DNA of 64,000 nucleotides from assembly GCA_034669905.1 (NCBI GenBank), contig JAXMOL010000001.1, positions 160,001-224,000 of the forward strand, in the 5' to 3' direction. Below the pieces are notes generated by a model. It saw nothing but the letters and a program-made list of their open reading frames with translations. It made no database searches and was not told the DNA's origin. Below are positions 38,644-62,181 of the stretch, piece by piece; positions within the stretch are counted from its first letter, which is position 1, and each line of letters begins with the position of its first letter. Position numbers and translations under genes: made by a program. This DNA comes from Candidatus Hydrogenedentota bacterium. Its GTDB lineage: Bacteria > Hydrogenedentota > Hydrogenedentia > Hydrogenedentales > JAEUWI01.

Positions 38644-40839
38644 TCAGGCCGTGGAAAGGACCTCCTGCTCCCGCAGCAAGCCGTAGTGTTCCAGGCCCTC
38701 CATGATTCCTGCGGCATATTCCGCCTTCGCAAAGTAGACCCGGGTACCGTTCTTACGGAGGGTATCGAGTTCTTTCGCGTAGTTACCCACCGCGATGCCG
38801 CAGGTACGCCCTTTCAGCATATCGAGGTCATTTCCGGAATCACCTGCGGTGGCGATGTTTTCCAGGGGGATATTCCACTTATTGGAGAGAAAGCGCACCG
38901 CTTTTCCCTTGGAAGCACGAAGGGGAAGCACATCGACAAAGACGTCGTGGGAAAAAATTACCGTATGGGGCACACCACTCCGTCCCAGCGCGTCATAGAT
39001 TTTCGGCAAGGCCACCTCTGAGGGGGTACCTTTGTCGAGATCGTAGCTGATTTTAAATTCACGTTGGGTCTCGGCGTCTTCCTGCATGGTCAAGAACGGC
39101 AGGGATTCCAGGGCCGCGCGCACCCGTTCCGGTTTCCACTTGTTGCGCAGGTGGCTGGCCCATCCCTTATCCCGCGTCAGGTTTTTGCCATAGTAAATCT
39201 CGGCACCAACGGACGCGATGACCACATCGAGCCCTTCTATCTGGTGCTCCTCCACCACCTCCGTAATCATATCGAGGTGACGGCCCGATGCCACCCCAAA
39301 GCCAATGCGGTGGCGATGCTCCTTCATGAAGGCCAACAGGCGTGCCATGGCGTCATCATCACCCAACAGGGTATTGTCGATGTCGGTAATCAACAGGGCC
39401 TCCAGCTCGGCGAGGCGGCGGCCCGGTGCGTTCCGGCTGTGCTTCTTGGGAAAGCTGGTCTCGGGGGTGGCTTCTACCAGTTTCCCCACGGCAGCAAGGT
39501 AGTCTTCGCAGTGTTTCTGCCAGGAATAGTGCTCGCGCACGCGATTCACCCCGTTGTCACTGAATTGCTGCCACTTTTCCCGGTCCGTGAGAATCGTTTT
39601 GATGGCCTGCCCGATTTCCTCGGGTTTGTGCACATCAACGAGGAGACCACACTCGCAGTTTTCGATAATATCCTGGGGACCACCGTTTTCCGTCCCGACA
39701 ATCGGAAGCCCACAGGCGGCCGCTTCGATGTAGGTCAGGCCAAAGGGCTCCACGAAGGCACTGTTCACAAAAACTCCGTGCTTGGAGGCCGCCAGGCGGT
39801 AGAGTTCGGGCACATCCACCTCCGACTCATGGTTCTTCGGCACGGCCATCTTTCCGTAGAGGTCGTAACGATCCATCATGAGCAACATGTCGGTCAGTAC
39901 CTGTTGCTCCGCTTCGGGCATGTCGGTGATGGACTTTCGAATACCGGCGAAAATCGCGAGGTTGGCCAGGGCCTGCAGTTCTTTGTCCTGTCCGTAGGCC
40001 TCCACCAGGGCGTTGATATTCTTTCGCTTATCCGGACGGCAAAGCGCGAGGATAATCGGACGGTCGGCATTGAAATGGAAGCGCTCCAACTCGCCCTGCA
40101 TCCGCATGCGGGCCTGTTTCCAGTATTCGCCCACGTTGTCGGGTGCCACTTCGTATTCGTAGTAGGGAAAGAAGCGCTCCAACTCCGTTCCCGGGGGTAT
40201 GACGGCGAATTCCGGGGCCTCGCCGTTGTAGTAATGCTTGTACTGGGTGTCTCGCTCGTGCCGCGTGCTGGTAACGACCAGATCGGCGCTGGCGAGGGAC
40301 TTTTCCTCGGCATCGATCCGGCGGTCGATATTGAATTCCTTATTCATCTGCTCACTGCTCCAGCCCTGAGAGACAAGATAGTTTTTCTTGTCCCTTCCCA
40401 GGCTGTGCCCCGTGAAGACAAAGGGCACGCCAAAGGCAGATGACACTTCCGTGGCGATGTAGCCGGCGTCGGCATAGTGACCGTGAACCAGGTCGGGCAC
40501 CCGGCCTTCTTTCCGAATGAAGGTAATCATGGCGTCGGCAAAGTCGTCGAGAAAAGGCCAGAGCCGTTCCTTGCGCATGTAGCGCCCCCCGCCACAGGGC
40601 AGGCGAACGATGCGGCAATTGGGACCAATCTCCTCAATGTCTTCACCGTATTCGGGCTCTACCCGCTTGTCACGAATGCGGCGGGTAAAGAGGTCGACTT
40701 TGGTCACCCCGTCCATCTTACCGAGGGTTCGGGCCAGTTCGAGCACATAGCGGACCTGCCCACCGGTGTCGGAGTCCCGCCCCATCTCGATCTTTTCACC
40801 GCGGATGAGGCCATGGATGCTGATTAACTGAATATACAT
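38644..40839 (-). CDS. spsA: Sucrose-phosphate synthase with C-terminal HAD (SPP-like) domain
   Basis: 'ISIHGLIRG..EMGRDSDTGGQVRYVLELAR', 'HGHYADAG', 'FTGHSLG', 'EPFGLTYIEAAACG'; HAD motifs 'TDIDNTL' and 'AGDSGND'. Confidence 0.92.
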   Translation of the reverse strand: MYIQLISIHGLIRGEKIEMGRDSDTGGQVRYVLELARTLGKMDGVTKVDLFTRRIRDKRVEPEYGEDIEEIGPNCRIVRLPCGGGRYMRKERLWPFLDDFADAMITFIRKEGRVPDLVHGHYADAGYIATEVSSAFGVPFVFTGHSLGRDKKNYLVSQGWSSEQMNKEFNIDRRIDAEEKSLASADLVVTSTRHERDTQYKHYYNGEAPEFAVIPPGTELERFFPYYEYEVAPDNVGEYWKQARMRMQGELERFHFNADRPIILALCRPDKRKNINALVEAYGQDKELQALANLAIFAGIRKSITDMPEAEQQVLTDMLLMMDRYDLYGKMAVPKNHESEVDVPELYRLAASKHGVFVNSAFVEPFGLTYIEAAACGLPIVGTENGGPQDIIENCECGLLVDVHKPEEIGQAIKTILTDREKWQQFSDNGVNRVREHYSWQKHCEDYLAAVGKLVEATPETSFPKKHSRNAPGRRLAELEALLITDIDNTLLGDDDAMARLLAFMKEHRHRIGFGVASGRHLDMITEVVEEHQIEGLDVVIASVGAEIYYGKNLTRDKGWASHLRNKWKPERVRAALESLPFLTMQEDAETQREFKISYDLDKGTPSEVALPKIYDALGRSGVPHTVIFSHDVFVDVLPLRASKGKAVRFLSNKWNIPLENIATAGDSGNDLDMLKGRTCGIAVGNYAKELDTLRKNGTRVYFAKAEYAAGIMEGLEHYGLLREQEVLSTA

Positions 40840-40851
40840 TGAGGGTTCCCT

Positions 40852-43326
40852 TTACTTCTTCAACGCTTCGATTGCACGGGGCCGAAATACGGTGTGGTAG
40901 AGCGTGTGGATATATTGGTCCAGGGCCCCACGATTCATAACGTCCAGATGGTCCCAGAAAGAATAGGTATTGGCCAGTCGAAGGACCTTGGCCGCGTGGG
41001 AACTCCAGAGGAAGGCGGCGCGCACCCGCGCGATACCTTCCCGACTGTAGTGCTCCCACCGGTCCCCGTTGGTCAGGACGCCGTAAAGCGCCTCGGCCAT
41101 ACGTTCATGATCATTGGGATTAACCACTTCGCCCGACTTCTTGTCTTCCACGATTTCTGCCGGGCCACCGAAACAGGTGACCACCACGGGCACGCTGCAG
41201 GCCATGGCTTCGATGACCGTGAGGCCGAAGGTCTCCATGAAGGCCGGCTGAGAGAAGACCCCGCGGCGGTCCGCGACCAGCCGGTAAATTTCGCCCGTCT
41301 CCACCTTGTCGAGTCGGGCGGCGCACCAGCGCAGGGAGCCTTCCAACTGATAGTGATCAATCAAGTCATACATACGTTGCAACTGATCGATTTCCTCCTG
41401 GTCACTGGAATCTTCAATGCGGGTGATAGAGGACATAATAACAAGATTGGCCACCTTTCGCAGCGCGTCGGATTTTCCGAACGCTTCGATGATACCCGGG
41501 AGGTTCTTTACCTTGTCCACCCGTGACATGGCGAAGATGGGGGGCAAGTCGGGATTCGTCAGGTGGCCGATGCAGTTTTCGGCCGGTTGGGGCGCAAAGA
41601 GAAGCTTCTCCAGGCGTTCGCAGACACCAGTAAGACGCCGCGTCGTCTCCGATGCAGGGAAAAAGTGCTCTTCACTGACCCCGGGCGGCACAATGTTGTA
41701 TCGGGCCAGGGTCAGGTCCATGCCCGACGTCACGCGGTACAACCCGGGCATGGAAAAGGTTTCGTAGCTTTCGAACATACCCATCTCATTGTCCGTGCCG
41801 CCTATCTCGCGGTAGGAACTGCTGATAATAAAGTCGGCGGCGTTGTAGGCAATCATATCCGCTGTGAACTGGCAGGAGAAATGATACTCTGCTTCCATAT
41901 CGGCCCAGTAAAGATCGCTCAAGAGGTATTTTGTCTTTTCCAGGGCATGGACTGCCGCGCAGTGGGTCGTTCCCAGATCTTCGGCGAGGCGATGGGCCAC
42001 CAGATTGCCATCGCTGTAGTGGCCGATGATGAGATCGGGCACCGACATGAACTCCCCCACCACCGTTTCCCGCGCCTGCAGGGCGAAGTCCTCCAGGTAG
42101 GGCCAGATGTGGAACCGGGAAATCCAGGACGGATGAATGCTTTCATCGGGGTTTCGAAAGGGGACCCGTACGATCCAGCAGTGATCACTCCCGATTACTT
42201 TCTCCCGCGCCTGGTTGCAGGTCGTGCCTTCGGCATCGGGGATCAGGCGGGTCAGAATGGCGATGTGGGGGATCATTTCTTCCAGGCCACTCTCGTAGAA
42301 GCGCGCCTTCAGCTCCCGCTCAATGGCACGGGCCTGATCGAGCACATAGGTCACCTGGCCACCCGTGTCTGGCTTGCCGAGGACATCGTGTTGGGCGAAC
42401 CAGCCATGGGGGCTTACCATCACCACTGTACGGGTCAAGGGCAACGCCGCCAGCAGGCGCTCCAGGCGATCGGGGTCGGCGGATTCCAGGACCTGGGACA
42501 GGGTGCTCAGCCGTTCACGGACGCCTTCCAGGCTTCGCCCCCATCCCGGCTCAAAACCATGAATGCGCAGCAGGTGGGTCACGCCATCGTCGATGATTCC
42601 GTCGCCCCGGTCGGCCAAATCCTGTAATACGGCCTCGATCTGTTCCACCAACACTTCGTGGGAGGTAATATAGTCGTTGAGGAAGAGGTTGTGATTCTCG
42701 AGTCGAAACTTTCGCAGGAAATCGGTGAGTGCCGCGCGAAAATGATCGGGCTGCTGATATGTGGTGCCCGCGAGGTGGCGGTTGAGCACCGAAATACCCG
42801 CGCCCATGGCCCGGGCTTCCTGCGTCTTGGGATAGTTGAGAAAGAACGGTCGGAAATCGATGGTGAGTCCGGTGCGGCTGGCTTCCGATTGCCCCTGGAT
42901 AAAGGCGTCTTTCACCCGCAGGTATTCGCCCCGTTCCACCGCTTCGAAGCGCCCCAACTCCGGATGAGAACGGACGATCCGTTTCTGGCCGATCCTGGGT
43001 CGCAGCAAGAGGTAATCATAGATGTCGCCAAAGAATATCTCCTGACAACCTCGAAGCAATTTACGCAGGCCGCGCTCCGTCGCTTCTTCCAGGGCGGCAT
43101 CCGTTTCGATAAAACTGTCCAACGCTTCCTGTACCCGGTCGCGCAGGACGATGGTATCGCCCACTTCGCGGAGTTGGGACAGAAAACGCAGGGCCGCCAC
43201 CGCCGCCAGGTCTACCTCTGGCTGGAGCGCGCGGGAAAAGCCCAACGCGGCCGCGCCTGCGGGGCGAGCTGGATTCCCGCCATCGGGGTCCAAAATGGGC
43301 TGTATGGTATCTCGTCTAACAGACAC
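40852..43326 (-). CDS. susA: Sucrose synthase
   Basis: 'SPHGWFAQHDVLGKPDTGGQVTYVLDQARA', 'IGHYSDGNLVA', 'HALEKTKY', 'FSCQFTAD', 'ETFGLTVIEAM'. AAGGAGG precedes GTG 43326. Confidence 0.92.
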   Translation of the reverse strand: MSVRRDTIQPILDPDGGNPARPAGAAALGFSRALQPEVDLAAVAALRFLSQLREVGDTIVLRDRVQEALDSFIETDAALEEATERGLRKLLRGCQEIFFGDIYDYLLLRPRIGQKRIVRSHPELGRFEAVERGEYLRVKDAFIQGQSEASRTGLTIDFRPFFLNYPKTQEARAMGAGISVLNRHLAGTTYQQPDHFRAALTDFLRKFRLENHNLFLNDYITSHEVLVEQIEAVLQDLADRGDGIIDDGVTHLLRIHGFEPGWGRSLEGVRERLSTLSQVLESADPDRLERLLAALPLTRTVVMVSPHGWFAQHDVLGKPDTGGQVTYVLDQARAIERELKARFYESGLEEMIPHIAILTRLIPDAEGTTCNQAREKVIGSDHCWIVRVPFRNPDESIHPSWISRFHIWPYLEDFALQARETVVGEFMSVPDLIIGHYSDGNLVAHRLAEDLGTTHCAAVHALEKTKYLLSDLYWADMEAEYHFSCQFTADMIAYNAADFIISSSYREIGGTDNEMGMFESYETFSMPGLYRVTSGMDLTLARYNIVPPGVSEEHFFPASETTRRLTGVCERLEKLLFAPQPAENCIGHLTNPDLPPIFAMSRVDKVKNLPGIIEAFGKSDALRKVANLVIMSSITRIEDSSDQEEIDQLQRMYDLIDHYQLEGSLRWCAARLDKVETGEIYRLVADRRGVFSQPAFMETFGLTVIEAMACSVPVVVTCFGGPAEIVEDKKSGEVVNPNDHERMAEALYGVLTNGDRWEHYSREGIARVRAAFLWSSHAAKVLRLANTYSFWDHLDVMNRGALDQYIHTLYHTVFRPRAIEALKK

Positions 43327-43465
43327 TTCAACCTCCTTCGTTTGGCATCTCGTTTCTGTATCGTTCGATGAGGCCCCGGCCCTGGGACCAGAACCGGTAG
43401 TCCCCCGCACCCACGGGCTGCGGACTCCCCGAAAGTACGGTGAGGGCCCGGGTAAGGTTATCCGT

Positions 43466-44449
43466 TTATTCCGCGTCGTAGCGCAGGCCCCACTGACTGC
43501 GGACACGATCCAAGGTCTGGATAACACGCTGGCTCATGGACCAGGGCACGGTCGCGCAATGGGTGTGACCTGCCAGGATACCTTCCGTTACCGCCTGCGC
43601 CTCCAGATGGTAACCATACCCCTGGCGCTCGTAACGGCGGGTCACCGGACGACCTTCCCGGGTAACGATATAGTAATCCGGTTGGGAAAATTGTTCAGGG
43701 ATTTCGATGACCCCCTCGTCCCCGATGATAGTCGCCCCCTGGGAGGGCGCTTCATCCAGCGAAAAGTGCACGCTGGCATGTTGGCCTTCGCCGTAATCCA
43801 GGGCGAGCGAAGCGGTCATATCGACCCCCGTAGGTGCCGGTCGCCATTCCGACTGGATAGCACGGGGTTCCCGGCCGAAAATCATATCGGCAAAGGCCAC
43901 GGTGTAAATCCCGATATCCAGAAGCGCACCGCCCCCCAGGGCCGGGTCAAAAATCCGGCTGGCGGGATCCGGGGTCGCCGGGTAGGAAAAACCCGCGCGC
44001 ACTTCACGAGGCACACCGATTTCGCCCCGTGCGATGTGATTCCTCAACGACCGAATGGCGGGAAAAAAGGCAGTCCAGAAGGCCTCCATGAGAAACTGGC
44101 CTGTCTCCTCGGCCGTGGCCACCATGCGATCCACCTGTTGACGGTTCATCGCGAGGGGCTTCTCACACAGGACCCCTTTGCCCGCTTCCAGGCACAGCAA
44201 GGTATCCTCACAGTGTCGGATGTTGGGCGTGGCCACATAGACCACATCGATCGCGGGGTCATTGGCCAGGGATTGGTAGTCCCCATAGCGGACGGGAATA
44301 CCATGATGGTCGCCGAAGGATTCGGCACGAAGGGCGGTACGGGAGGCGACGGCACGCAATTCGGCACGGGGAACAAGACGTAGGTCTTCGGCCATCTGGC
44401 GGGCGATATCACCCGTACCCAGGATTCCCCATGTCACCGTGCGGTCCAT
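43466..44449 (-). CDS. Gfo/Idh/MocA family oxidoreductase
   Basis: 'WGILGTGDIA', 'DVVYVATP', 'VLCEKP', 'GGGALLDIGIY'. Confidence 0.9.
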   Translation of the reverse strand: MDRTVTWGILGTGDIARQMAEDLRLVPRAELRAVASRTALRAESFGDHHGIPVRYGDYQSLANDPAIDVVYVATPNIRHCEDTLLCLEAGKGVLCEKPLAMNRQQVDRMVATAEETGQFLMEAFWTAFFPAIRSLRNHIARGEIGVPREVRAGFSYPATPDPASRIFDPALGGGALLDIGIYTVAFADMIFGREPRAIQSEWRPAPTGVDMTASLALDYGEGQHASVHFSLDEAPSQGATIIGDEGVIEIPEQFSQPDYYIVTREGRPVTRRYERQGYGYHLEAQAVTEGILAGHTHCATVPWSMSQRVIQTLDRVRSQWGLRYDAE

Positions 44450-46264: not shown

Positions 46265-46340
46265 TGGTGAACGGGGTGGGGCTCGAACCCACGACCACCG
46301 GATTAAAAGTCCGATGCTCTACCAACTGAGCTACCCGTTC
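46265..46340 (-). tRNA. tRNA-Lys (anticodon UUU)
   Basis: GAACGGGTAGCTCAGTTGGTAGAGCATCGGACTTTTAATCCGGTGGTCGTGGGTTCGAGCCCCACCCCGTTCACCA: 76-nt cloverleaf with encoded CCA. Confidence 0.97.
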
Positions 46341-48013: not shown

Positions 48014-49900
48014 TTATTCGGACAATGCGAGGACTTGTCGCAGGGGCCGCATTTCAAAGGTTCGGGGAGTATGTCGGAACACTTCATCAAATGTGGTGAG
48101 GCCGCGCACCACCTTGGCGCAGGCGTCTTCCCGCATACTGATGAGTCCCGTTGTCTCCACACTGAGTTGTCGTATCACGTGCGCCGACTTTTTCGCGAGG
48201 ATGGCCTCTTTTACCGGCTCGTTGAGCACCAGCAATTCGTAGGCACCCACGCGGCCCCGGTAGCCGGTATAGGCACAGTGATTGCACCCCCGTCCACGCT
48301 GGTACTCATATTGCCGCAGTTCATCGAGGGAAAGGCCGATGGTCTGGGCTTCCTTTCCGGTAGGCACATAGGGCGAGGTGCAGTGGGTGCAGATTCTTCT
48401 CAACAGACGCTGGGCCACCACGGAAACCACGGTGGACGAAATGAGGAAGGTCTCAATATCCATATCGATGAGCCGCAGCAGGCCACCGATGGTATCTTCG
48501 GTGTGAAAGGTGGAATAGACCTTGTGTCCGGTGAGGGCCGCTTGAATGGCCACCTGGGCGGACTCTTTATCCCGGATCTCGCCCATCACAATAATATCGG
48601 GGTCCTGACGCACAATCTCTCGTAAGGTCGAGTGAAAGGTACGCCCGATTTTCTCGTGAATGGAGCACTGGATAATACCCTCGATGGTAAACTCGACGGG
48701 GTCTTCTGCCGTGATAATCTTGGTGTTAATATCGTTGCAATAGGCAATGCTGCTGTAGAGGGTGGTCGTTTTACCGGAACCCGTGGGCCCGGTGTAGAGC
48801 ACGACCCCCGTGGGCGTATGCAACACATCTTCGCGGTAACGGGCAAGCATATTGGGCGCCATGCCCAGGTGATCCAGGGTCACCAGTGCCATCTCACGAT
48901 TGAGAATTCGCATGACCGCCGATTCACCGTAGACGGTGACATAGATGGAAATCCGCAAATCAACTTCGCGTTCGTCAAAGGAAAACTGGAATCGTCCGCC
49001 CTGGTGCCGCTGGTGCTCCGCAATATTCAGCTCAGACAAAATCTTCAGGCGTGAAATCAGCTTTACGAGCAGCTCTTTGGGCAAGTCGGTCTTGTACACC
49101 AACACGCCGTCAATCCGATAGCGGATGCGAACCACTTCCTCCATAGGCTCGATATGGATGTCGCTGGCCCCCTCTTGAATCGCTTCCTGAATAATATGGT
49201 TCAGGATGGGGACGATCGTATCTTCGGCTTCGCTGCCCCCTTGCCCCCCCCGGGCACCGCTGGGCACCCGTGTATTGTAGAAATCGCGAAGGCTCTGGTT
49301 GATGGTTTCTTTGGGGCCCAGAGCCAGTTTGAACTTGTCGCGATAGAGCTCCCGAATGGCCTGAAGGACACTGCGGTTATCCAATTCCGAAACGACGACC
49401 ATGACGGTACCCTCTTCGTTACGCGAAAAGGGCAAGAATCCATTCGTCATCAGAAATTCGGGAGAGGCACCACCCAGCACGTCTTTGTCGAGCATACTGG
49501 CGCTGGGCTCGATATAAGGAACTCCGGACTGGTGCGCCACGTTACGGAGGAGCGTGCGTTCATTGATGGCACCGAGACTGAGCAGGGCCTCGCCAAGGCG
49601 GATTCCTTGCTCTTGCTGGGTCTTGAGGGCGATGGAGAGCGTGTCGGCCGTAATGATGCCCTGCTCCACCAGCAGGTCACCCAATCGGAGGTTCCCCCCC
49701 TGGCTCGCGATGGCTTCCGTAAGGGCCTTGCGTTCGCCATAACCCAGATCGACCAGCACCTCCACGAGTTGCTTGGGATCTTCCAGCATGGATTGGACGC
49801 GGAGGGCCCGGGTTAATTGCTCTTTCGTTATGGCACCGGCCGCAACGAGGGCATCCCCTATGGCGGAATGAAGGGAATCATTGGGGGTACTGGATGCCAT
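48014..49900 (-). CDS. GspE/PilB-family assembly ATPase with N-terminal MshEN c-di-GMP-binding motifs
   Basis: 'ASDIHIEP', 'RYRIDG', GPTGSGKTTTLY, 'TAEDPVE', 'RQDPDIIVMGEIRD', 'TGHKVYSTFHT', tetra-Cys. N-terminal RLGDLLVEQGII...RLGEALLSLGAI. Confidence 0.92.
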   Translation of the reverse strand: MASSTPNDSLHSAIGDALVAAGAITKEQLTRALRVQSMLEDPKQLVEVLVDLGYGERKALTEAIASQGGNLRLGDLLVEQGIITADTLSIALKTQQEQGIRLGEALLSLGAINERTLLRNVAHQSGVPYIEPSASMLDKDVLGGASPEFLMTNGFLPFSRNEEGTVMVVVSELDNRSVLQAIRELYRDKFKLALGPKETINQSLRDFYNTRVPSGARGGQGGSEAEDTIVPILNHIIQEAIQEGASDIHIEPMEEVVRIRYRIDGVLVYKTDLPKELLVKLISRLKILSELNIAEHQRHQGGRFQFSFDEREVDLRISIYVTVYGESAVMRILNREMALVTLDHLGMAPNMLARYREDVLHTPTGVVLYTGPTGSGKTTTLYSSIAYCNDINTKIITAEDPVEFTIEGIIQCSIHEKIGRTFHSTLREIVRQDPDIIVMGEIRDKESAQVAIQAALTGHKVYSTFHTEDTIGGLLRLIDMDIETFLISSTVVSVVAQRLLRRICTHCTSPYVPTGKEAQTIGLSLDELRQYEYQRGRGCNHCAYTGYRGRVGAYELLVLNEPVKEAILAKKSAHVIRQLSVETTGLISMREDACAKVVRGLTTFDEVFRHTPRTFEMRPLRQVLALSE

Positions 49901-53928: not shown

Positions 53929-55149
53929 ATGCCGGTATATTCCTACCGTGCCGTCAATGGGGACGGAGAAGCCTTTGAAGACACTGTCGAAGCCATATCG
54001 GCCTACGACCTGACCCAGTCGCTGGAGGCCCAGGGACTTCGGGTCACGTCTATCGACTTTGCCGGCCAGGCACCGGGCACCATGGTCAATGCGAAACAAC
54101 TCAGCTGGGAGGAACTACGCCTCTTCACGGAGCAACTGGGGTCTATCGCACGCAGCGGCTATCCCCTCGTGCCCTCCCTGGCGGCCCTGTCGGACGAGTT
54201 GGAACAGCCCCGCCTCCGTGCCGCCACGGAACAACTCCAGAGCGATTTGGCACGGGGCACCTCGTTGGGGGAGGCCTTTCGCCATCAGGAGTCCCGTTTC
54301 CCACCCCTCTTTGGCGCACTGGTCCGTGCAGGCGAATTAACCGGTGACCTGCCCACCGTGCTCGACATGATGAACGATCATGCGACCCGCATGGCGTCGG
54401 TAAAACACCGCGTGAAGATGGCCCTGGCCTATCCCCTTTTACTCGCCATTTGTGCCGTTTCGGTCATCCTCTATCAACTACTCTATATCGTGCCGGTGTT
54501 TTCCGATATCTTTCTCGAAATGGGAGGCCCGCTACCGGTCCCCACCCAGTTTCTCCTCGTGGTATCGGATGTACTGCGCCATCATTGGTCCGTCGTATTG
54601 ATCGGTGCCGCCCTTGTCGCGCTGGGCCTTGTCGCTGTCTATGTGCTGCTGAAACGTCAACCGGAGGGCCGCCGCTTTCTGGACCGCTGCACGCTCTATT
54701 TCCCCGGCATTGGCATGGCCTATCAGGGCGTGGTACAGGCACGCTTCTGCCGTACCTTTGCGCTGCTCCTGGGGGCGCGCGTGCCCCTTATTGATGCCTT
54801 GCTTCTTTCCGGGACGGCTTCGGGAAGTGCGGTGCTGGAGAAGGCCGTGTCCCATGCCAGCGATGTGGTGGCCCAGGGCGGTCGGCTCGTGGACGGCCTG
54901 CGGGTATCCCGCTTTTTCGGGCCGAGCTTTTACTGGCTACTGGGTACGGCGGAAGAGCGGGGCCAGGTGGAATATGCGTTGAACAACCTCGCGGAAAGTG
55001 CAGAGCGGACGGTCCGCACCCGGGAACAATTGCTCGGTTCGGTCATTACGCCCGCCCTGACAATTTTTCTCGGGCTTATCATAGGTTTCATGGTCGTCGC
55101 CCTCTATATGCCCATCTTCACCTTGGGTGATCAGTTGGGGGTGAACTGA
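53929..55149 (+). CDS. PilC/GspF inner-membrane platform protein (canonical, copy A1)
   Basis: 'MPVYSYRAV', 'FTEQLGSIARSGYPL', 'FPPLFGALVRAGELTGDL', 'ALAYP', 'LYMPIFTLG'. Confidence 0.9.
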   Translation: MPVYSYRAVNGDGEAFEDTVEAISAYDLTQSLEAQGLRVTSIDFAGQAPGTMVNAKQLSWEELRLFTEQLGSIARSGYPLVPSLAALSDELEQPRLRAATEQLQSDLARGTSLGEAFRHQESRFPPLFGALVRAGELTGDLPTVLDMMNDHATRMASVKHRVKMALAYPLLLAICAVSVILYQLLYIVPVFSDIFLEMGGPLPVPTQFLLVVSDVLRHHWSVVLIGAALVALGLVAVYVLLKRQPEGRRFLDRCTLYFPGIGMAYQGVVQARFCRTFALLLGARVPLIDALLLSGTASGSAVLEKAVSHASDVVAQGGRLVDGLRVSRFFGPSFYWLLGTAEERGQVEYALNNLAESAERTVRTREQLLGSVITPALTIFLGLIIGFMVVALYMPIFTLGDQLGVN

Positions 55150-56582
55150 TGGCAACCTTACCTTCCTGGCGCTCCCTCTTTATTTTCGGCGAATGGCTTC
55201 GGCGCATGAATCGGGAGGGCAAGGGCGACTCCAACTATCCCCGGGCCGTCCTCAAGAAGGCGCGCAATCCCAAGTGGGAAGGCCCCTATTATTTCAATAC
55301 CAACCGCTGGCGACATGATCTCCTCCTCGTGCTGGAACAGGTGCGCCTCCATGTGAAGTCGAACGTGGCACTGGGACCCGCCTTTGCCATGGCCGCCCGG
55401 GACCACCTCGATACAGGACGGGGCCTGACGCCCCAGCATGTTTCCTATATGGCCAAGCTTGCGGGACTCGGCATCCTCCTCCTCATCAGTCTGGTGGGTG
55501 CCCTCGCGGCCCTGGCGGAAGGGGGGAGTGAAGCGCTGCCCGAACTACTGGAGCCGGGCATCATCGGCATCTGGCTTATCGCAGTGGCGCGCCATAGTGG
55601 CACAAAGCCCGTGGCGGTATTTGCGGCCCTGGAGGCCCACGCGGAACGGGGCCTTTCTCTCTCGGAATCCATGGCACGGCTGCCTCGCTTCTTCCCCAAA
55701 GACCTGGTGACCCTGGTGGCCACGGCCGAACGGACGGGAAAGCTCGATCCCGTTTTGGACAGCTTCAGCCAGGAAACCATCGTGCAGTGGACGGCCCAGC
55801 GGGCGCTTACGCGGGTCTACCGCTATCTGTACTTCGGGTTTATTGTACAGGCCAGTATCTTCGCCTTTATGGCGGTGAAGGTTTTGCCCGTCTACGAAGA
55901 GACGCTCCAGGAAACGGGGACAGCGATTGACCATCCCACGACCATCCCCGGCATTCCGCTGCCCCTCCCTTCCCTGACGGATCTCTATGGGGTGGCCAAC
56001 TTCGCCAGCGTGTACCGCTATCACATCGCCGGATTCTGCTGGCTGATTGCCTTCTGGTTCTGGATTCGCCCCCTGCGCACCCGACGCCATTGGGCCAGCC
56101 GCGTGGAGTCCACACTCCTCCTCGCTGTCCCCGGCATCCGGGGTATGGTGGCGCGGCAAAACCTCGGCACCATCGCCTTTCTGCTCCACCAACTCCTGCG
56201 CGCCGGAGTACCCCTCGAACGGGCGCTGGGTACAGTGGCCGAGGGGGATCTCCATCCCGTCTATCGCCGGTGGGTGGCCCATGTGCGCCAGGGCATCCTC
56301 AATGGCAAGAGTTTCCGGGACGCGTGCACCGGGTTTCGTATGGCCGCCCCCCTGCCCCGCTCCTTTCGGGCCATGGTCAGCATGGGCGAGTTACACGGCC
56401 ACATGGAAAAGGCCCTGGCCTATCTTGCCGAGCAATACCACGGTCAAGTGATACGACGTCAGCAATTGCTCCGGGCCAGCCTCCTTCCGCTGGGCGTTTT
56501 CCTGATGGGCTATTTTGTATTGGCCATCGAGGCGGCGGTCTTTCAGGCCCTGGTCGATTTGGCCGATGCCATGCTCGTGTGA
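55149..56582 (+). CDS. Atypical PilC/GspF paralogue with TM-hairpin insertion (copy B1)
   Basis: 'FFPKDLVTLVATAERTGKLD', 'LLRAGVPLERAL', 'MVSMGELHGHM'; extra N-terminal motif and insertion. Confidence 0.82.
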   Translation: MATLPSWRSLFIFGEWLRRMNREGKGDSNYPRAVLKKARNPKWEGPYYFNTNRWRHDLLLVLEQVRLHVKSNVALGPAFAMAARDHLDTGRGLTPQHVSYMAKLAGLGILLLISLVGALAALAEGGSEALPELLEPGIIGIWLIAVARHSGTKPVAVFAALEAHAERGLSLSESMARLPRFFPKDLVTLVATAERTGKLDPVLDSFSQETIVQWTAQRALTRVYRYLYFGFIVQASIFAFMAVKVLPVYEETLQETGTAIDHPTTIPGIPLPLPSLTDLYGVANFASVYRYHIAGFCWLIAFWFWIRPLRTRRHWASRVESTLLLAVPGIRGMVARQNLGTIAFLLHQLLRAGVPLERALGTVAEGDLHPVYRRWVAHVRQGILNGKSFRDACTGFRMAAPLPRSFRAMVSMGELHGHMEKALAYLAEQYHGQVIRRQQLLRASLLPLGVFLMGYFVLAIEAAVFQALVDLADAMLV

Positions 56583-56643
56583 TCGTTTTGCACCGCCCAG
56601 GCCATTATCCCGACAGGTGTCGAATGGACCAAGGGAACAGACT

Positions 56644-57861
56644 ATGACCAAATTTGTATATCGGGCGTTGGACCCCCACGGTAACGCCGTCGAAGATACG
56701 ATGGATGCGCCGTCGGCCCATGCCGCCACGCGAAAGCTGCAGGAACGGGGCCTCACGGTGAATTCCGTCGAAGAGGCCTTCCCCGAGAAAGGGCTGCTCC
56801 GGGTTTCCGGACGGCTCCATTGGGAAGATCTCCAGCTCCTCTCCGAGCAGTTGGCTTCCATCATTCGCAGCGGGCTACCTTTGGTGCCGTCCCTGCAGGC
56901 CCTCGCCAAGGATCTCCGCCACCCCCGGCTCAAGCCCGTGCTCGAAGGATTGCACCAGGACCTCGACCGGGGCATCGCGCTGGAGGATGCCATCGCCCGT
57001 CAGCATGACCACTTCCCCCCCATGTACCCGGTCCTGATTCGTGCCGGGGAGGCCTCGGGCGATCTGCCGGGCGTGCTGGGGCTCATCAGTGAGCATGCGA
57101 CCCGGATTGTGGACCTGAAACACCGGGTGCAGGCGGCCATGGTCTATCCCCTGATACTGGCCGTCATCTCGCTGACTATCCTGACCTTCCTTCTGGTAAA
57201 GGTCGTGCCCGTCTTTGAGAGCATATTCGCGGAACTGGGAGGCTCTCTTCCGGCACCCACGCGGTTGCTGGTGACCTTGAGCCACGGGGTGCAGAGCGCC
57301 GGCCCCACCATCGCCATCGCCGTCCTGATTGCCCTCATCGGAGGGGTGGTGCTGTGGAGCCGACTCCTGCGCTCCCAACGGGGCCGTTGCCAACTGGAAC
57401 TCTTCCGACTCTACGCACCGTGGGTTGGTCCGGCGTATCACGTGGCCGTGCAGGCCCGTTTCTTCCGTATGATGTCCCTCCTGCTGGCTTCCCGCGTCCC
57501 CGTATTGGATGCCATCGAGCTGTCCGCCGCCGGCTCCGGCAGTGCTGTGTTGGAGCGGGCCAGCGAAGAATCCGTTCTCAGCGTGGCCGCAGGCGAAAAT
57601 CTCTCCGATGCCCTGAAGGGCACCGGATTCTTTGGCCACGATGCCCTGTGGCTCATGGCAACCAGTGAAGCCCGGGGGCGCATCGACGAGGCCTTCGAAA
57701 GTCTGGCCAACCGCTATGAGCGGGAGGTGGCGACCCAGGATCAGATGGCGGGCGCGGTGCTGGGACCGGCTTTTGTCATCGGACTGGGCTGCATGGTGGC
57801 CTTCATCGCCATATCGCTTTACTTACCCATCTTCACGCTGGGCGACCAGATTAATGGATAG
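56644..57861 (+). CDS. PilC/GspF inner-membrane platform protein (canonical, copy A2)
   Basis: 'MTKFVYRAL', 'EQLASIIRSGLPL', 'FPPMYPVLIRAGEASGDL', 'AMVYP', 'LYLPIFTLG'. Confidence 0.9.
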   Translation: MTKFVYRALDPHGNAVEDTMDAPSAHAATRKLQERGLTVNSVEEAFPEKGLLRVSGRLHWEDLQLLSEQLASIIRSGLPLVPSLQALAKDLRHPRLKPVLEGLHQDLDRGIALEDAIARQHDHFPPMYPVLIRAGEASGDLPGVLGLISEHATRIVDLKHRVQAAMVYPLILAVISLTILTFLLVKVVPVFESIFAELGGSLPAPTRLLVTLSHGVQSAGPTIAIAVLIALIGGVVLWSRLLRSQRGRCQLELFRLYAPWVGPAYHVAVQARFFRMMSLLLASRVPVLDAIELSAAGSGSAVLERASEESVLSVAAGENLSDALKGTGFFGHDALWLMATSEARGRIDEAFESLANRYEREVATQDQMAGAVLGPAFVIGLGCMVAFIAISLYLPIFTLGDQING

Positions 57862-57864
57862 GCC

Positions 57865-59370
57865 ATGAACTGGAAAAAACTCCTGACATCCAACCTGGGC
57901 CAGCTCTTCTCCCGCAAAAGCGAAGAGGATGTGTTGCCCTCGACCCCGCGCTATTTCTGGAGCGTCTTGCTCGACTTCGTGCTGCGACGTACGCCCCGAG
58001 ACGTGGCCGATGCGTTGGACACGATTCCCTACCCCACCTCGCTCGTCCGGAAAGTTGGGAACCCCCGTTGGCGGGGTCCCGTCTATCGCAGTGGGCGCGC
58101 GTGGCGGCACGACGTGCTGTCGGTGGCGGAGTATATCCGCAGCCTCATAGCCAGCAATGTGCCACTGGCGGAGGGGATGGCGGCGGCCGCCCAGGAGGAA
58201 TACCGCAAGCGCACCCGTTGGACACCCCAGCAAATGACCCGTCTCAGCACCGTGCTTATGCTGCTCGTGGCGGGGGTCTTTTTCGCCGTCAACATCGCGC
58301 AGAACATCAACGGGCTCGCCAGCCTTTCCACCGTGTTGCAGGCCGTCATTCTGGTGGGGCTCGTCCTCCTGTTGGTTCGGCACTTGTTCCTTTCCAAAAA
58401 TCGCCGACTCGCGGTATTTCTTGCCCTCCAGACCCGTCTCGATGCCGGTGCGGGTATTGCCGAGGCCATGGAAAGCCTCCCCCGTTTTTTCCCCCGGCAT
58501 TTAGCCGACCTGGTGCGGGTGGGTGAAGAGACGGGCGAGCTCGATGACGCCTTTGCACAGTTCAACGGCACGACCCTCCGCGCTATGGAGCGCCACCGCC
58601 AATTGCACTGGGTCCTCCGTTACCTGGGTGCCGTGGTGATGTTGCAAGGCCTGATTCTGGTCTTCCTGGGCATCAAGGTCTTGCCCGTCTTCATCGAGAT
58701 CACCGAAGAAATTTACGAAGACCATAGCACCGCCGTGGAGACACCCACCTACCTGAATACGGCGTATGGAGCCGCTTCCCTGGTCGATCATGCCATCTAT
58801 CACTGGCCTCAATGGGCCATGGGCGGGGCCGTCTTCCTCCTCTGTTTTGCCGCGCTGCGCTTTCGGAGTCGCCGGGGCTGGGCCAGTGGTCCGGCCGCCT
58901 TCCCCCTCCTCTTTGTGCCGTGGATTCGGGGGCTCATCGTGCGACAGAATCTTTCACAGATCGCCCTCATGCTCCATGGGCTCCTCCGCTGTGGGGTCCC
59001 CCTGGACCGTGCCCTGGGCATGTGTAGCAGTACGGACGTCCATCCGGCCTACCGGGATTGGTTATCGGCGCTCCGCGAATCCCTCCGGGGTGGGGCGTCC
59101 TTACGGGAAGGCCTGGCGCATACACGGCGGAAGGGCCTGATCCCCGACACCTTTGTGGGGCAAGTGGAAGCCGGTGAATACTCGGGGCAACTTCCCACCA
59201 TGCTGGAACGGATTTCCACCATTTATGCCATGGAGGCGGAGAAACGAATGCAGATACTGGTGGCCATTGTGTTGCCGGTGGGTATCCTGTGCCTGGGTTA
59301 TATCACGGCTTCGGCTCAGATACTGGCCTTTCAATTACTCATCGGGCTTGCCGAATCGCTCTTGGTTTAG
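57865..59370 (+). CDS. Atypical PilC/GspF paralogue with TM-hairpin insertion (copy B2)
   Basis: 'FFPRHLADLVRVGEETGELD', 'LLRCGVPLDRAL', 'VEAGEYSGQL'; shares the N-terminal motif of B1. Confidence 0.82.
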   Translation: MNWKKLLTSNLGQLFSRKSEEDVLPSTPRYFWSVLLDFVLRRTPRDVADALDTIPYPTSLVRKVGNPRWRGPVYRSGRAWRHDVLSVAEYIRSLIASNVPLAEGMAAAAQEEYRKRTRWTPQQMTRLSTVLMLLVAGVFFAVNIAQNINGLASLSTVLQAVILVGLVLLLVRHLFLSKNRRLAVFLALQTRLDAGAGIAEAMESLPRFFPRHLADLVRVGEETGELDDAFAQFNGTTLRAMERHRQLHWVLRYLGAVVMLQGLILVFLGIKVLPVFIEITEEIYEDHSTAVETPTYLNTAYGAASLVDHAIYHWPQWAMGGAVFLLCFAALRFRSRRGWASGPAAFPLLFVPWIRGLIVRQNLSQIALMLHGLLRCGVPLDRALGMCSSTDVHPAYRDWLSALRESLRGGASLREGLAHTRRKGLIPDTFVGQVEAGEYSGQLPTMLERISTIYAMEAEKRMQILVAIVLPVGILCLGYITASAQILAFQLLIGLAESLLV

Positions 59371-59419
59371 CGGCCCCGAGGCACTTGAATGCCGGAAGCC
59401 TATTGAAGGATTACAACGC

Positions 59420-59821
59420 GTGCAACAGAAGCAAAACAAGAATCGGGGATTCACCCTGCTGGAATTGACCTGCGCCCTCTTCATCATTACGGTGGCGGGT
59501 TTTGGGACGATCCAGCTCTACAACGTGGGAGTCAATAAAATCCTGGTCATGCAGGAGCTCGACGTGGCATCGGAATTGCTCCGCAATGAGATGGAAGCCC
59601 TTCGCGCCCGGCCCTTCGACACCGTCACGTCGGGAGACACCTTGGCCAATCCATCGGCGGCCCTCACCGCCCTGCACCGTCCGGAGGCGACGGTAGAGGT
59701 GGTCGAGCTGGCGCCCGGCCTGAAGGAAGTCTCCGTCACCCTGAAATGGCAGTCCCGCCATGGTCGGTGGATTGAGCGGGCCCTGGTGACACGGGTCGCC
59801 CGGAAGGGAGAAGGCGCATGA
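59420..59821 (+). CDS. Minor (pseudo)pilin, GspI/PilV-like
   Basis: Class III signal NRG|FTLLE; GAAGGA RBS before GTG. Confidence 0.8.
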   Translation: MQQKQNKNRGFTLLELTCALFIITVAGFGTIQLYNVGVNKILVMQELDVASELLRNEMEALRARPFDTVTSGDTLANPSAALTALHRPEATVEVVELAPGLKEVSVTLKWQSRHGRWIERALVTRVARKGEGA

Positions 59822-60375
59822 AACGACGCATGGGAGCTTGCCCGGGCTATTCACTGCTGGAACTGCTGGTCTACTTGACAGTGCTCGCCATCGGCATCAA
59901 TCTCTTTATCTCGGCTATGGGCACGGGCTCACGGCTTTCGGCCACGACCACCCTCCAGATGGGCCGCCTGGAAGGTATCCGCGAGGTACAACAGACGTTT
60001 GTGCACTACGTGCGCCGGGCAGCGACCGTAGTCCCTTCTATCGGGCGCTACCGCACCGGCGATTCGGTGGTCGTGCTGAAAATGCCCGCCCTGCAACCCG
60101 AAGGCTTTGACTATCTGGTAGTCGGTGCCGTGCAACGACCCGACGCCTTCACGGTGTTGGGATTGACACAGATCGACGGCCAATGGCAGGAGACCTATAT
60201 GAAAACCCTGCGACAAGCCCTGGGACAGCAGACCTTCACGGTACGTGAGGACGGCCCGCGTCCCCTGATCCAGATGACGGTGCAGGTCAAGCAGGAGACC
60301 GGCGAACGGGAGCGGCCCTTTCTCGTACACAGCTGCCATGCCACGCCCCGGGGCTACGGGAGCGCCACCCCATGA
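59818..60375 (+). CDS. Minor (pseudo)pilin, GspJ/PilW-like
   Basis: PG|YSLLELLV; ATGA overlap with the previous gene. Confidence 0.78.
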   Translation: MKRRMGACPGYSLLELLVYLTVLAIGINLFISAMGTGSRLSATTTLQMGRLEGIREVQQTFVHYVRRAATVVPSIGRYRTGDSVVVLKMPALQPEGFDYLVVGAVQRPDAFTVLGLTQIDGQWQETYMKTLRQALGQQTFTVREDGPRPLIQMTVQVKQETGERERPFLVHSCHATPRGYGSATP

Positions 60376-60803
60376 AGCAGCGAACGCGAAACGAGGGAAC
60401 AGCACTCATCTTTGCGATTATGGTCCTCGCCATTCTGAGCATCGGCACATCGGTGTTGTGGAAGCAACTGCATCAAAACCTGGAACAACACCGCATGGCC
60501 TGGCATCAGGAACAGGTATTCCTGGTCGCGGAAGCAGGATTGGATACGGCCATCGCCCGCTTACGACAACCCAACGCGAACTACGCCGGGGAAGAGGACG
60601 TGGTGGTCGGGCCGGGTCGCTTCACGGTGGTGGTGACGCCCGATGGCGCAGCGAGGAGTTATCGCCTGCGTTCAACGGCACGGCTGGACCACGTGACGTC
60701 TCGCTATAGCGCGGTCACCCTCGCGGCTACCCTGCGACTTTCCCCCACGGGAGAGGTTATCGCCTACGCCTGGCACATTGATCGAGAAGGAGGGGCCTCA
60801 TGA
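60372..60803 (+). CDS. Minor (pseudo)pilin, GspK/PilX-like (no Glu5)
   Basis: [12 protein letters not shown]; '[16 protein letters not shown]' PilX-type motif; ATGA overlap. Confidence 0.78.
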
Positions 60804-61591
60804 AGAGCGCCACCAGTAAACGGGGATTTACCCTCTTTGAATTGCTCACCGTCATCGCCACCATCGGCATCCTGGCCGCCATCTTGTTACCCGCACTCGC
60901 ACGGTCGCGAGAAGCGGCCCGTCGGGCAAGCTGTCTGAGTAACCTGGCCCAGTTGGGGCTGGCCTTGCGCATGTATGCCGAAGAGCATGAACGTCAACTT
61001 CCCTGGAGCGGCGGCGGCGGCAATGCCGATTGCCTCCTGCCCCTGCGGGGGGACTACTTACCAAAATCGGGCAATCTCTTCTGCCCGTCGGATGCCCAGA
61101 ATAGTTACCGCGACGTAGAGGAGCTCGACGGGGGCGATGTCGTCTGGACCACAGACATTGATTTTATCAGTTCCGGCAGGAACCAGAATACGGCTCCCAG
61201 CATGCGGGCGAGCTACGACTATTTCGGAGCCTACACCAAGGCCCCCCTGGCCTACCCCCACCCCTCACGACCGGTCCCGCGCACCCAGCTCATGTGGGAT
61301 ATCACCATCAAAAGTGTCGACAACAATCTGGGCTATTCACCCGGGGCCTCGAGCAATCATGTGCCATCGGGCGGTAACGTGTTATACCTCGACGGCTCGG
61401 TGGCCTTTCTCAAAACCCTGGATTGGTTCGCCAACGACCTGCCCCATGAGACACCGAGAATCGTCTATGACACACCCGACGCCATTGTCGCGACCCAGCA
61501 GGCGGAGGAAGAGGAAGCCCAGCCCGCAGCACGATCGGGATTGGGTGGTTTCTCGTCGGACCCCATATTCCCCCGCCGCGGAAATCGCTAG
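60800..61591 (+). CDS. DUF1559-type prepilin with H-X9-DG motif
   Basis: [42 protein letters not shown]; 'FCPSD'; '[16 protein letters not shown]'. Confidence 0.88.
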
Positions 61592-61815: not shown

Positions 61816-62181
61816 ATGCGCATCGAGGGAGATGAACGACGGCGTTACCCACGGAGCCGCCGTGGCCTGCCCATGGCCGTGGACGAAGCGGGTCCGGGCG
61901 TATTGAATCATGTGGACAACATCAGCGCCAACGGCGTGCTGTGCCATACCATCAAACCGGTCCCCCTCATGACCAAAATGCGTATTGCCCTCGATCTGCC
62001 TGCTCCCTATGGTCGGCGTGTGGATGCGGAAGGCATTGTGGTGCGCTGTGATGCCGATGACCGGGGTGACGACCACTTCAAGGTGGCCATCCTTTTCACC
62101 AAGATCGACGCCGATGAACACGAAGCCGTCCGCCAGTTTGTCGAAGAAGACATTGCGGTACAGGATGGTGTAAGCGACTAG
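61816..62181 (+). CDS. Stand-alone PilZ domain protein
   Basis: RxxxR in 'ERRRYPR' and (D/N)xSxxG in 'NISANG'; 'AEGIVVRC', 'VAILF'. Confidence 0.85.
   Translation: MRIEGDERRRYPRSRRGLPMAVDEAGPGVLNHVDNISANGVLCHTIKPVPLMTKMRIALDLPAPYGRRVDAEGIVVRCDADDRGDDHFKVAILFTKIDADEHEAVRQFVEEDIAVQDGVSD

Follow-up and report, generated by a model that had tools for sequence, protein, structure and literature searches.

The window analyzed here, 64,000 nucleotides of a Candidatus Hydrogenedentota genome (assembly GCA_034669905.1, contig JAXMOL010000001.1, positions 160,001 to 224,000, forward strand), contains a putative type IV filament operon in which two different types of full-length platform protein, here called A and B, are encoded as neighbors and the pair is doubled to A1-B1-A2-B2. 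This paired-platform cassette is real, conserved, and under selection. The conserved unit is a single A-B pair found phylum-wide, of which the four copies here are a local elaboration. The GspF/PilC family to which the proteins belong is itself known; new here is a bacterial cassette with two full-length platform types. To our knowledge, the bacterial machines that have been studied use one kind of platform subunit. In the literature searched, supplements not covered, no publication describes two full-length platform types in one bacterial system, and none describes pili in Hydrogenedentota. The suggestion of an undescribed type IV filament subtype, made in an initial annotation from the sequence alone, therefore stands against the literature searched, although such loci could be listed in the supplements as "generic" systems. 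Genomes, contigs, and loci are referred to below by G, C, and L numbers.

Four intact platform genes in one operon

The initial annotation had described four consecutive T2SSF-family genes in ABAB order, and all four open reading frames (ORFs) are intact where it placed them (Table 1). Each protein contains two stretches matching Pfam T2SSF (PF00482; E 1e-26 to 1e-44), the first of which is split in the B proteins (model positions 19-125 and 35-125). Global identity is 44% for A1/A2 and 37% for B1/B2 versus 22–28% for the four A/B pairings, so the resemblance claimed within each type holds, and the motifs quoted for the copies are found in the sequences. Successive junctions from A1 to the last pilin measure −1, +61, +3, +58, −4, −4, and −4 nucleotides (nt), the fourth becoming +49 with the GTG start at 59420; the 1-nt overlap of A1 and B1 and the 3-nt gap between A2 and B2 are as originally described, and the spacing is as in one operon. 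The pilins of the operon are N_methyl-type proteins of 133–263 amino acids.

The A-B pair is conserved across the phylum

A phylum-wide search with an A profile (E ≤ 1e-108) found 95 places in 73 of 135 genomes, including 47 of the 86 genomes of good quality. At 92 of these places a second platform gene lies directly 3′ on the same strand; two others are at a contig edge, and one is itself an ordinary PilC. The count was made from coordinates, plus the sequence of ten open cases, and about 35 of the 92 downstream genes are identified by position and profile match rather than by a tree. The gene order A-B-[ATPase]-V-W-[X-P], where V, W, and X denote the PilV/W/X-like minor pilins, occurs in 42 related loci with unrelated flanks, and A and B are closely spaced, mostly at −4 to +5 nt. 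As these 42 loci were picked mainly via B or ATPase matches, the A-first search serves as the reverse test.

Two pairs are present in this genome (G000) and in G001, G002, G003, G006, and G007, and three (ABABAB) in G008, all members of the same genus; the cassette of G004 is interrupted by a contig end, and G005 gave no match to the cassette. Because the ABAB order is found again in five further genomes of the genus, it is not a chance arrangement. Other genera examined have one pair each, save for single extra copies (A'-A-B in L063, A-x-B in L064, and B-B in L078). Thus, of the A-B(-A-B)-minor pilin synteny put forward in the initial annotation, the A-B pair is conserved across the phylum, and the four copies are an extra confined to the genus level. 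Whatever the number of pairs, a cassette has a single ATPase and a single set of pilins. In 14 of 41 loci, this one not among them, the first gene encodes an extracytoplasmic function (ECF) sigma factor, in most cases accompanied by an anti-sigma-like gene; this points to induction by an envelope signal.

A second, more distant type of A-B cassette, in which the pilin genes come first, is found on C71 of this genome (L001:2565-6315) and in L066, L079, L235, and L237. In the C71 cassette, three pilin-like genes precede the platform pair and B is short; in L066, a short ATPase adjoins the cassette on the opposite strand.

Phylogeny, duplication, and selection

In a tree of 109 rows, from which four rows shorter than 300 amino acids were left out, all 50 B rows form one clade (support 99) apart from 49 A-side rows and ten ordinary platforms. 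A more careful tree of 32 rows recovers B (100/100), A (100/100), and ordinary PilC/GspF (99/95) as clades, with A and B separate from the PilC-like genes of this genome and from E. coli HofC. The outgroup comprised ten ordinary platforms (two from E. coli K-12) and ten from metagenomes. B, which diverges faster than A, is a clade of its own and a remodeled subunit outside ordinary PilC/GspF, among which the initial annotation had considered that it might fall.

Inside the genus, the A and B trees have the same shape, (copy 2,(third copy of G008, copy 1)), and the pair was therefore duplicated as a unit, twice. The ABAB and ABABAB arrangements are the result of duplication of the A-B pair within one genus, in agreement with the two-gene module proposed originally. 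Nei-Gojobori ratios of nonsynonymous to synonymous substitution rates (dN/dS) against G007 are 0.09 for A1, 0.09 for B1, 0.11 for A2, and 0.14 for B2; over all 20 platform comparisons they range from 0.04 to 0.28, with dS saturated in several. All four platform genes are under purifying selection, instead of the relaxed selection on extra copies that had been considered beforehand.

These results bear on the possibility that an ordinary pilC underwent a recent tandem duplication and that the extra copies it left are redundant or in decay. Six of the eight other genus members carry two or three pairs while the other genera examined have one, so that the second pair is dispensable elsewhere, and the third pair of G008 sits on long branches in the 32-row tree. 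However, the copies are intact and only 37–44% identical, dN/dS is 0.09–0.14 against the closest relative, and B forms a separate clade across the phylum. Selection and phylogeny largely refute this explanation, and we regard it as very improbable.

The synonymous divergence within the genus is uneven, as seen at L042 (G008), L045 (G002), L046 (G001), and L047 (G006). Between G001 and G006, dS is 1.7–2.0 for A1/B1 and 0.4–0.5 for A2/B2, while between G008 and G002 it is 0.2 for A1/B1 and 1.5 for B2; such differences between neighboring genes suggest that alleles of the pair have been exchanged between species.

Anatomy of A and B

A1 and A2 have three membrane helices, and B1 and B2 have two extra hydrophobic helices, according to hydropathy and structure models (predicted topology). 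For residue counts, membership in B was taken from the tree. The N-terminal YxY motif is found in 45 of 47 A rows and in none of 50 B rows, and WxG[PAH] precedes the first cytoplasmic domain (Cyto1) in 39 of the 50 B rows. The first-helix Tyr is kept in all rows (50/50 in B); the Pro after it is present in 47/47 A and 10/10 ordinary rows and in 0/50 B rows. The third-helix Pro is kept in 47 of 50 B rows. The residue before it is Glu in seven and Gln in two of ten ordinary rows, Glu in 0/47 A and 0/50 B rows, and mostly Gly, Ala, or Thr in A and mostly Leu in B. In the PulF trimer, Tyr168 and Glu370 lie beside invariable prolines at the channel constriction, according to the available text of PMC10790770.

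The anchor-to-anchor distance across Cyto1 is exactly 34 residues in all 59 non-B rows and in 19 B rows. In the other 31 of 50 B rows it is 90–167 (97 in B1 and 98 in B2), and the insert of these long B proteins contains either two hydrophobic segments or four; B variants with four such helices rather than two are encoded at L075:1857-3512 and L076:6344-8113. The insert of B1 and B2 is predicted to form a membrane hairpin. A model of B2 built with 144 sequences (predicted local distance difference test score 89.5, predicted template modeling score 0.82) shows the insert as two helices (121-146 and 154-175) that separate the second helix of Cyto1 from the third, and the second cytoplasmic domain (Cyto2) of the model overlays OutF, EpsF, and PilC (Z ~15, root-mean-square deviation 1.6–1.8 over 103–115 residues). 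A complex prediction for A2 and B2 (residues 55-501) gave a score of 0.26 and a mark of 0.32 with the controls not folded, and we use it neither way.

The remodeling of B could mean that it is a PilC-derived accessory protein, such as a membrane anchor or alignment part, a pilin chaperone, or a regulator, that acts beside a homomeric A platform and replaces the missing PilMNOP/GspLM. Loss of the first-helix Pro and of YxY (0/50 each), divergence faster than that of A, and the two or four hydrophobic helices added in 31 of 50 rows would all fit such a role, as would the lack of alignment-complex genes in the cassette. Nevertheless, B retains both cytoplasmic domains, the first-helix Tyr (50/50), and the third-helix Pro (47/50), 19 of the 50 B rows show nothing beyond the plain three helices, and the N-domain is dispensable in PulF, as reported in the same part of PMC10790770. 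We consider an accessory B unlikely, though a serious alternative.

A short ATPase as the probable partner of the cassette

In 16 of the 42 loci, the gene that follows B and precedes the pilins encodes a short PilB/GspE-family ATPase of 407–472 amino acids; the 22 long-B loci all lack this gene within the cassette. These proteins lack the N-terminal domain and keep Walker A/B, the His box, and four Cys, and their signature is of the type YxxDxPQDG, where the ordinary ATPases of the genome read [ED]xRxPQDG. Model scores of the short ATPase are 469 of 630 for GspE, 401 for PilB, and 37 for the TadA family. Its relative in this genome is intact and stands alone on contig C22 (L011:6473-7720), and a stand-alone gene is present in 24 of 26 genomes whose cassette is without one, the two misses being genomes 84% and 60% complete. 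Fifteen cassette and sixteen stand-alone short ATPases form one clade with support of 100 that excludes the ATPase of the window (FastTree).

The latter had been pointed out in the initial annotation as a potential partner. The minus-strand segment 46949-49900 encodes a PilB/GspE-like ATPase (48014-49900) that contains two c-di-GMP-binding motifs of the MshE type; an HDOD-domain gene follows, and no platform or pilin gene lies beside the ATPase. Its location 4 kb upstream of the operon would suit a system completed by this enzyme. However, the orthologues, 65–92% identical in four relatives and with none found in G023, are unlinked to the cassette, at a distance of about 2.1 Mb in G008, whose genome is a single contig, and on separate contigs in G003, G007, and G010, and the c-di-GMP-binding N-terminus is absent from cassette ATPases. 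The unlinked orthologues and the position outside the cassette-ATPase clade rule out this ATPase as the partner, and a cassette that depends on it is scarcely credible.

Two relatives of the short ATPase, 581–599 amino acids long (P0249 and P0275), are annotated N_methyl + T2SSE and may be fusions of an ATPase with a pilin, or artefacts of gene calling. Short PilB-like ATPases with the related signature TYQxGxPQ[DE]G and no adjoining platform gene are also encoded at L152:6935-8152 and L184:3835-4926. A 63-amino acid ORF at L129:7795-7986, which by eye resembles a lone platform N-domain, is oriented divergently from the stand-alone short ATPase in G025.

Comparison with described filament systems

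With GspF, PulF, and PilC the cassette shares two T2SSF domains per protein, the three-helix layout and Tyr-Pro of A, and the Cyto2 fold of B2. Unlike GspF/PilC systems, it has two fixed, differing full-length platform genes, a B that is altered at the N-terminus, lacks the Pro, and has a predicted Cyto1 hairpin, and no third-helix Glu in either A or B. None of the four platforms reaches the cut-off of the NCBIfam equivalogs GspF, PilC, HofC, or ComGB (scores 84–279 of 424 for GspF and 50–218 of 700 for PilC; GspG likewise scores 33 of 89).

The PilB/GspE-family ATPase and the trio of V/W/X-like minor pilins are shared with type II secretion systems (T2SS) and type IVa pili (T4aP), but the ATPase here has no N-terminal domain and the cassette no secretin or alignment genes. 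The T2SS secretin GspD and GspC/L/M are absent from the operon in the window and from the 42 related loci, as far as these loci extend. Of the T4aP components, none of PilM/N/O/P, PilQ, and PilT is encoded in the cassette; PilM-like, secretin, and PilT-like genes found elsewhere in the genome could be shared.

Two adjacent platform genes that are needed together are also a feature of the Tad/Flp pilus (the type IVc pilus; TadB and TadC) and of archaeal Epd, the two cases named, with one domain per gene, in the available parts of PMC6668835 and PMC10191384. Fission gave rise to TadB and TadC, and each contains a single T2SSF domain (PMC6668835, PMC10191384). Unlike in Tad, each platform here has two domains, the ATPase is PilB/GspE-like rather than TadA-like, and there is no Flp pilin. 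The Com pilus (ComGA-GG) is similar in its compact core of a short ATPase, a platform, and few pilins, with the peptidase elsewhere, as outlined in PMC10191384. Com, however, has one platform, the host genome here encodes secretins, and matches to the Com models are below cut-off (229.5 of 300 for ComGA and 52–91 of 240 for ComGB). Archaeal type IV filament subsystems 4A and 4B have two platform genes and one ATPase, in the portion of PMC13705601 available; these have archaeal pilins, adhesins, and another gene order.

The type IV filament core set is complete in this genome, with pilins and platforms in the operon, an A24 peptidase on C69, and the short ATPase on C22.

A candidate mechanism

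In our proposal, the operon would supply a type IV filament machine with its membrane and pilin components, the platform genes of this machine being a fixed A-B pair that is here doubled to A1B1A2B2. The steps of processing, minor-pilin tip, shaft, and ATPase-driven assembly are taken from general type IV filament biology as presented in the available text of PMC10191384. The four pilins would be processed by the single prepilin peptidase of the genome, three of them (PilV/W/X-like) to prime the tip and the fourth, the DUF1559 pilin, to form the shaft. The short PilB/GspE-family ATPase without an N-terminal regulatory domain, here the one on C22, would drive assembly at the platform. The filament might be periplasmic or leave through one of the secretins of the genome.

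We think it somewhat more likely than not, given linkage and co-duplication, that A and B assemble as one mixed platform. This is the simplest reading because each cassette has one ATPase and pilin set, the A-B junctions are tight, and the genes were duplicated as a pair. Should the platform be trimeric like that reported for PulF, its two kinds of subunit would yield an asymmetric A2B or AB2 ring; the extra hairpin of B would then face the lipid and serve as an anchor or bind a partner. Two pairs would then give two, or mixed, platform versions for one pilin set.

Alternatively, A and B might form separate homomeric platforms that alternate on the same ATPase, for example for start versus extension or for different pilins. 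Both proteins are full-length with two domains, and extra single copies exist (L063, L064, and L078), as this would lead one to expect; by itself, however, alternation leaves the tight A-B junctions and the twofold duplication of the pair unexplained, and we find it distinctly unlikely.

Several observations weigh against a mixed platform. B lacks the proline that is called invariable in the available text of PMC10790770, and its loss fits a non-rotor role equally well. The A1 of G006 is close to that of G008 (dS 0.37) while B1 is far more distant (dS 1.78), so the matching of A and B is not strict. No secretin or PilM/N/O/P-like gene is present in any cassette. Stand-alone short ATPases are also present in genomes that gave no A-B pair, the single-contig G025 for example, and may therefore serve other platforms. 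Finally, 62 of 135 genomes lack the cassette or gave no match to it, so that it is dispensable.

A bolder extension of the mixed platform is that these cassettes represent a widespread and undescribed class of asymmetric-rotor motor, with a mixed A/B trimer, no acidic channel residue, an ATPase without an N-domain, no PilMNOP/GspLM ring, and the B hairpin as an anchor or specificity part, of which the multi-pair genus builds several rotor versions for one filament. We offer this as a speculative idea that may well prove wrong.

Range beyond the phylum

A scan of named genomes with one narrow pattern gave nine loci, among them L082, which is 92% identical to B2, and two weak matches in other groups; from the metagenome scan the best matches were listed. 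One of the 80 listed metagenome loci, L177 (46% GC), has two platform genes, a 377-amino acid ATPase with the cassette-type signature, and V/W/X-like genes, of which the PilX-like protein matches the cassette profile at 5e-20. The L177 platforms branch outside the ordinary clade, and both retain Tyr-Pro. Among look-alikes of a short B, the top Atlas cluster is mostly Planctomycetota; ordinary clusters score equally, making this a lead only. A plasmid search gave only ordinary GspF-like rows among the best 40 of 543 matches. The best 150 matches of a profile search of 1.8 billion representatives include long and short B forms, and a cluster look-up of ten distant B-like proteins returned two named ones, one of them as Hydrogenedentes.

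The operon and its surroundings

The features of the operon are listed in Table 1. The V/W/X labels of the minor pilins are based on weak matches, signal motifs, and gene order. The cassette DUF1559 pilin is likely the bulk filament subunit. Its model contains the long N-terminal pilin helix, and a Foldseek search with this model returned nothing at E ≤ 0.001, the two best rows being type IV pilins. Cys45, Cys95, and His187 are invariant in 31 sequences of the cassette pilin family, which includes the product of 60800-61591, and possibly form a disulfide or metal site. DUF1559 pilins are expanded in planctomycetes and described there without a function, in the available parts of PMC8567305 and PMC2754498. 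A role of the cassette as the machine for expanded DUF1559 pilins is ruled out, as five genomes without it have 15–66 PF07596 matches versus 9–49 in five with it.

Table 1. Genes of the paired-platform operon and insertions in the B proteins (window coordinates).
Feature	Position	Strand	Description
Platform A1	53929-55149	+	406 amino acids; ordinary layout with N-terminal YxY, two T2SSF domains, three predicted membrane helices, Tyr168-Pro169
Platform B1	55149-56582	+	477 amino acids; two T2SSF domains, WxGPxY before Cyto1; no YxY N-domain motif, no Pro after first-helix Tyr
Cyto1 insertion of B1	55410-55598	+	About residues 88-150 (approximate limits); two hydrophobic segments, predicted membrane hairpin
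Platform A2	56644-57861	+	405 amino acids; paralogue of A1 (44%)
Platform B2	57865-59370	+	501 amino acids; paralogue of B1 (37%)
Cyto1 insertion of B2	58207-58398	+	About residues 115-178 (approximate limits); modeled helices 121-146 and 154-175
Minor pilin, PilV/GspI-like	59420-59821	+	GTG start; class III signal G/FTLLE
Minor pilin, PilW/GspJ-like	59818-60375	+	Assigned by position and signal G/YSLLE; weak N_methyl match below cut-off
Minor pilin, PilX/GspK-like	60372-60803	+	No Glu5; weak PilX_N and GspK matches below cut-off
DUF1559 / H-X9-DG pilin, cassette-specific	60800-61591	+	263 amino acids; N_methyl, DUF1559, and H-X9-DG

A PilZ gene at 61816-62181 is ruled out as a core part: of the loci compared, only those of G007 and G004 have such a gene after the cassette. 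A promoter scan found 0 sites versus 2.4 expected, and the sole Rfam match in the window is a tRNA gene (46268-46340, minus strand). Further upstream, the minus strand of 38644-43527 encodes a sucrose synthase and then a fused sucrose-phosphate synthase/phosphatase, both passing NCBIfam cut-offs.

Elsewhere, this genome encodes 13 platform-family ORFs, 68 DUF1559-like pilins, several PilB/GspE-like ATPases, seven secretin matches above cut-off, PilM-like and PilT-like proteins, and a single A24 prepilin peptidase (C69), with a separate T2SS-like locus on C38. An orphan cassette on C11 (L006:8179-12023) combines three pilin-like genes with a single platform that has a long Lys/Ala-rich N-terminus; its counterpart in G015 lies directly behind an A-B cassette. 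Lone short platforms of 322–341 amino acids without an N-domain are encoded at L007:7846-8871 and L008:7682-8650, with no pilins or ATPase nearby.

Implications for the platform

The platform is described as the most poorly characterized core part of type IV filament machines (PMC10191384, available text), and its stoichiometry, dimer or trimer, and the proposed ion channel are presented as open questions in the corresponding part of PMC10790770. Two distinguishable full-length subunits would let tagging or cryo-EM read stoichiometry and subunit order directly. The A-B pair also tests current platform models at two points. The glutamate at the constriction of the proposed channel is kept by neither A nor B. 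Moreover, B tolerates a hydrophobic insertion of 56–133 residues at one exact loop of Cyto1, an observation that marks this loop as pointing away from the ATPase.

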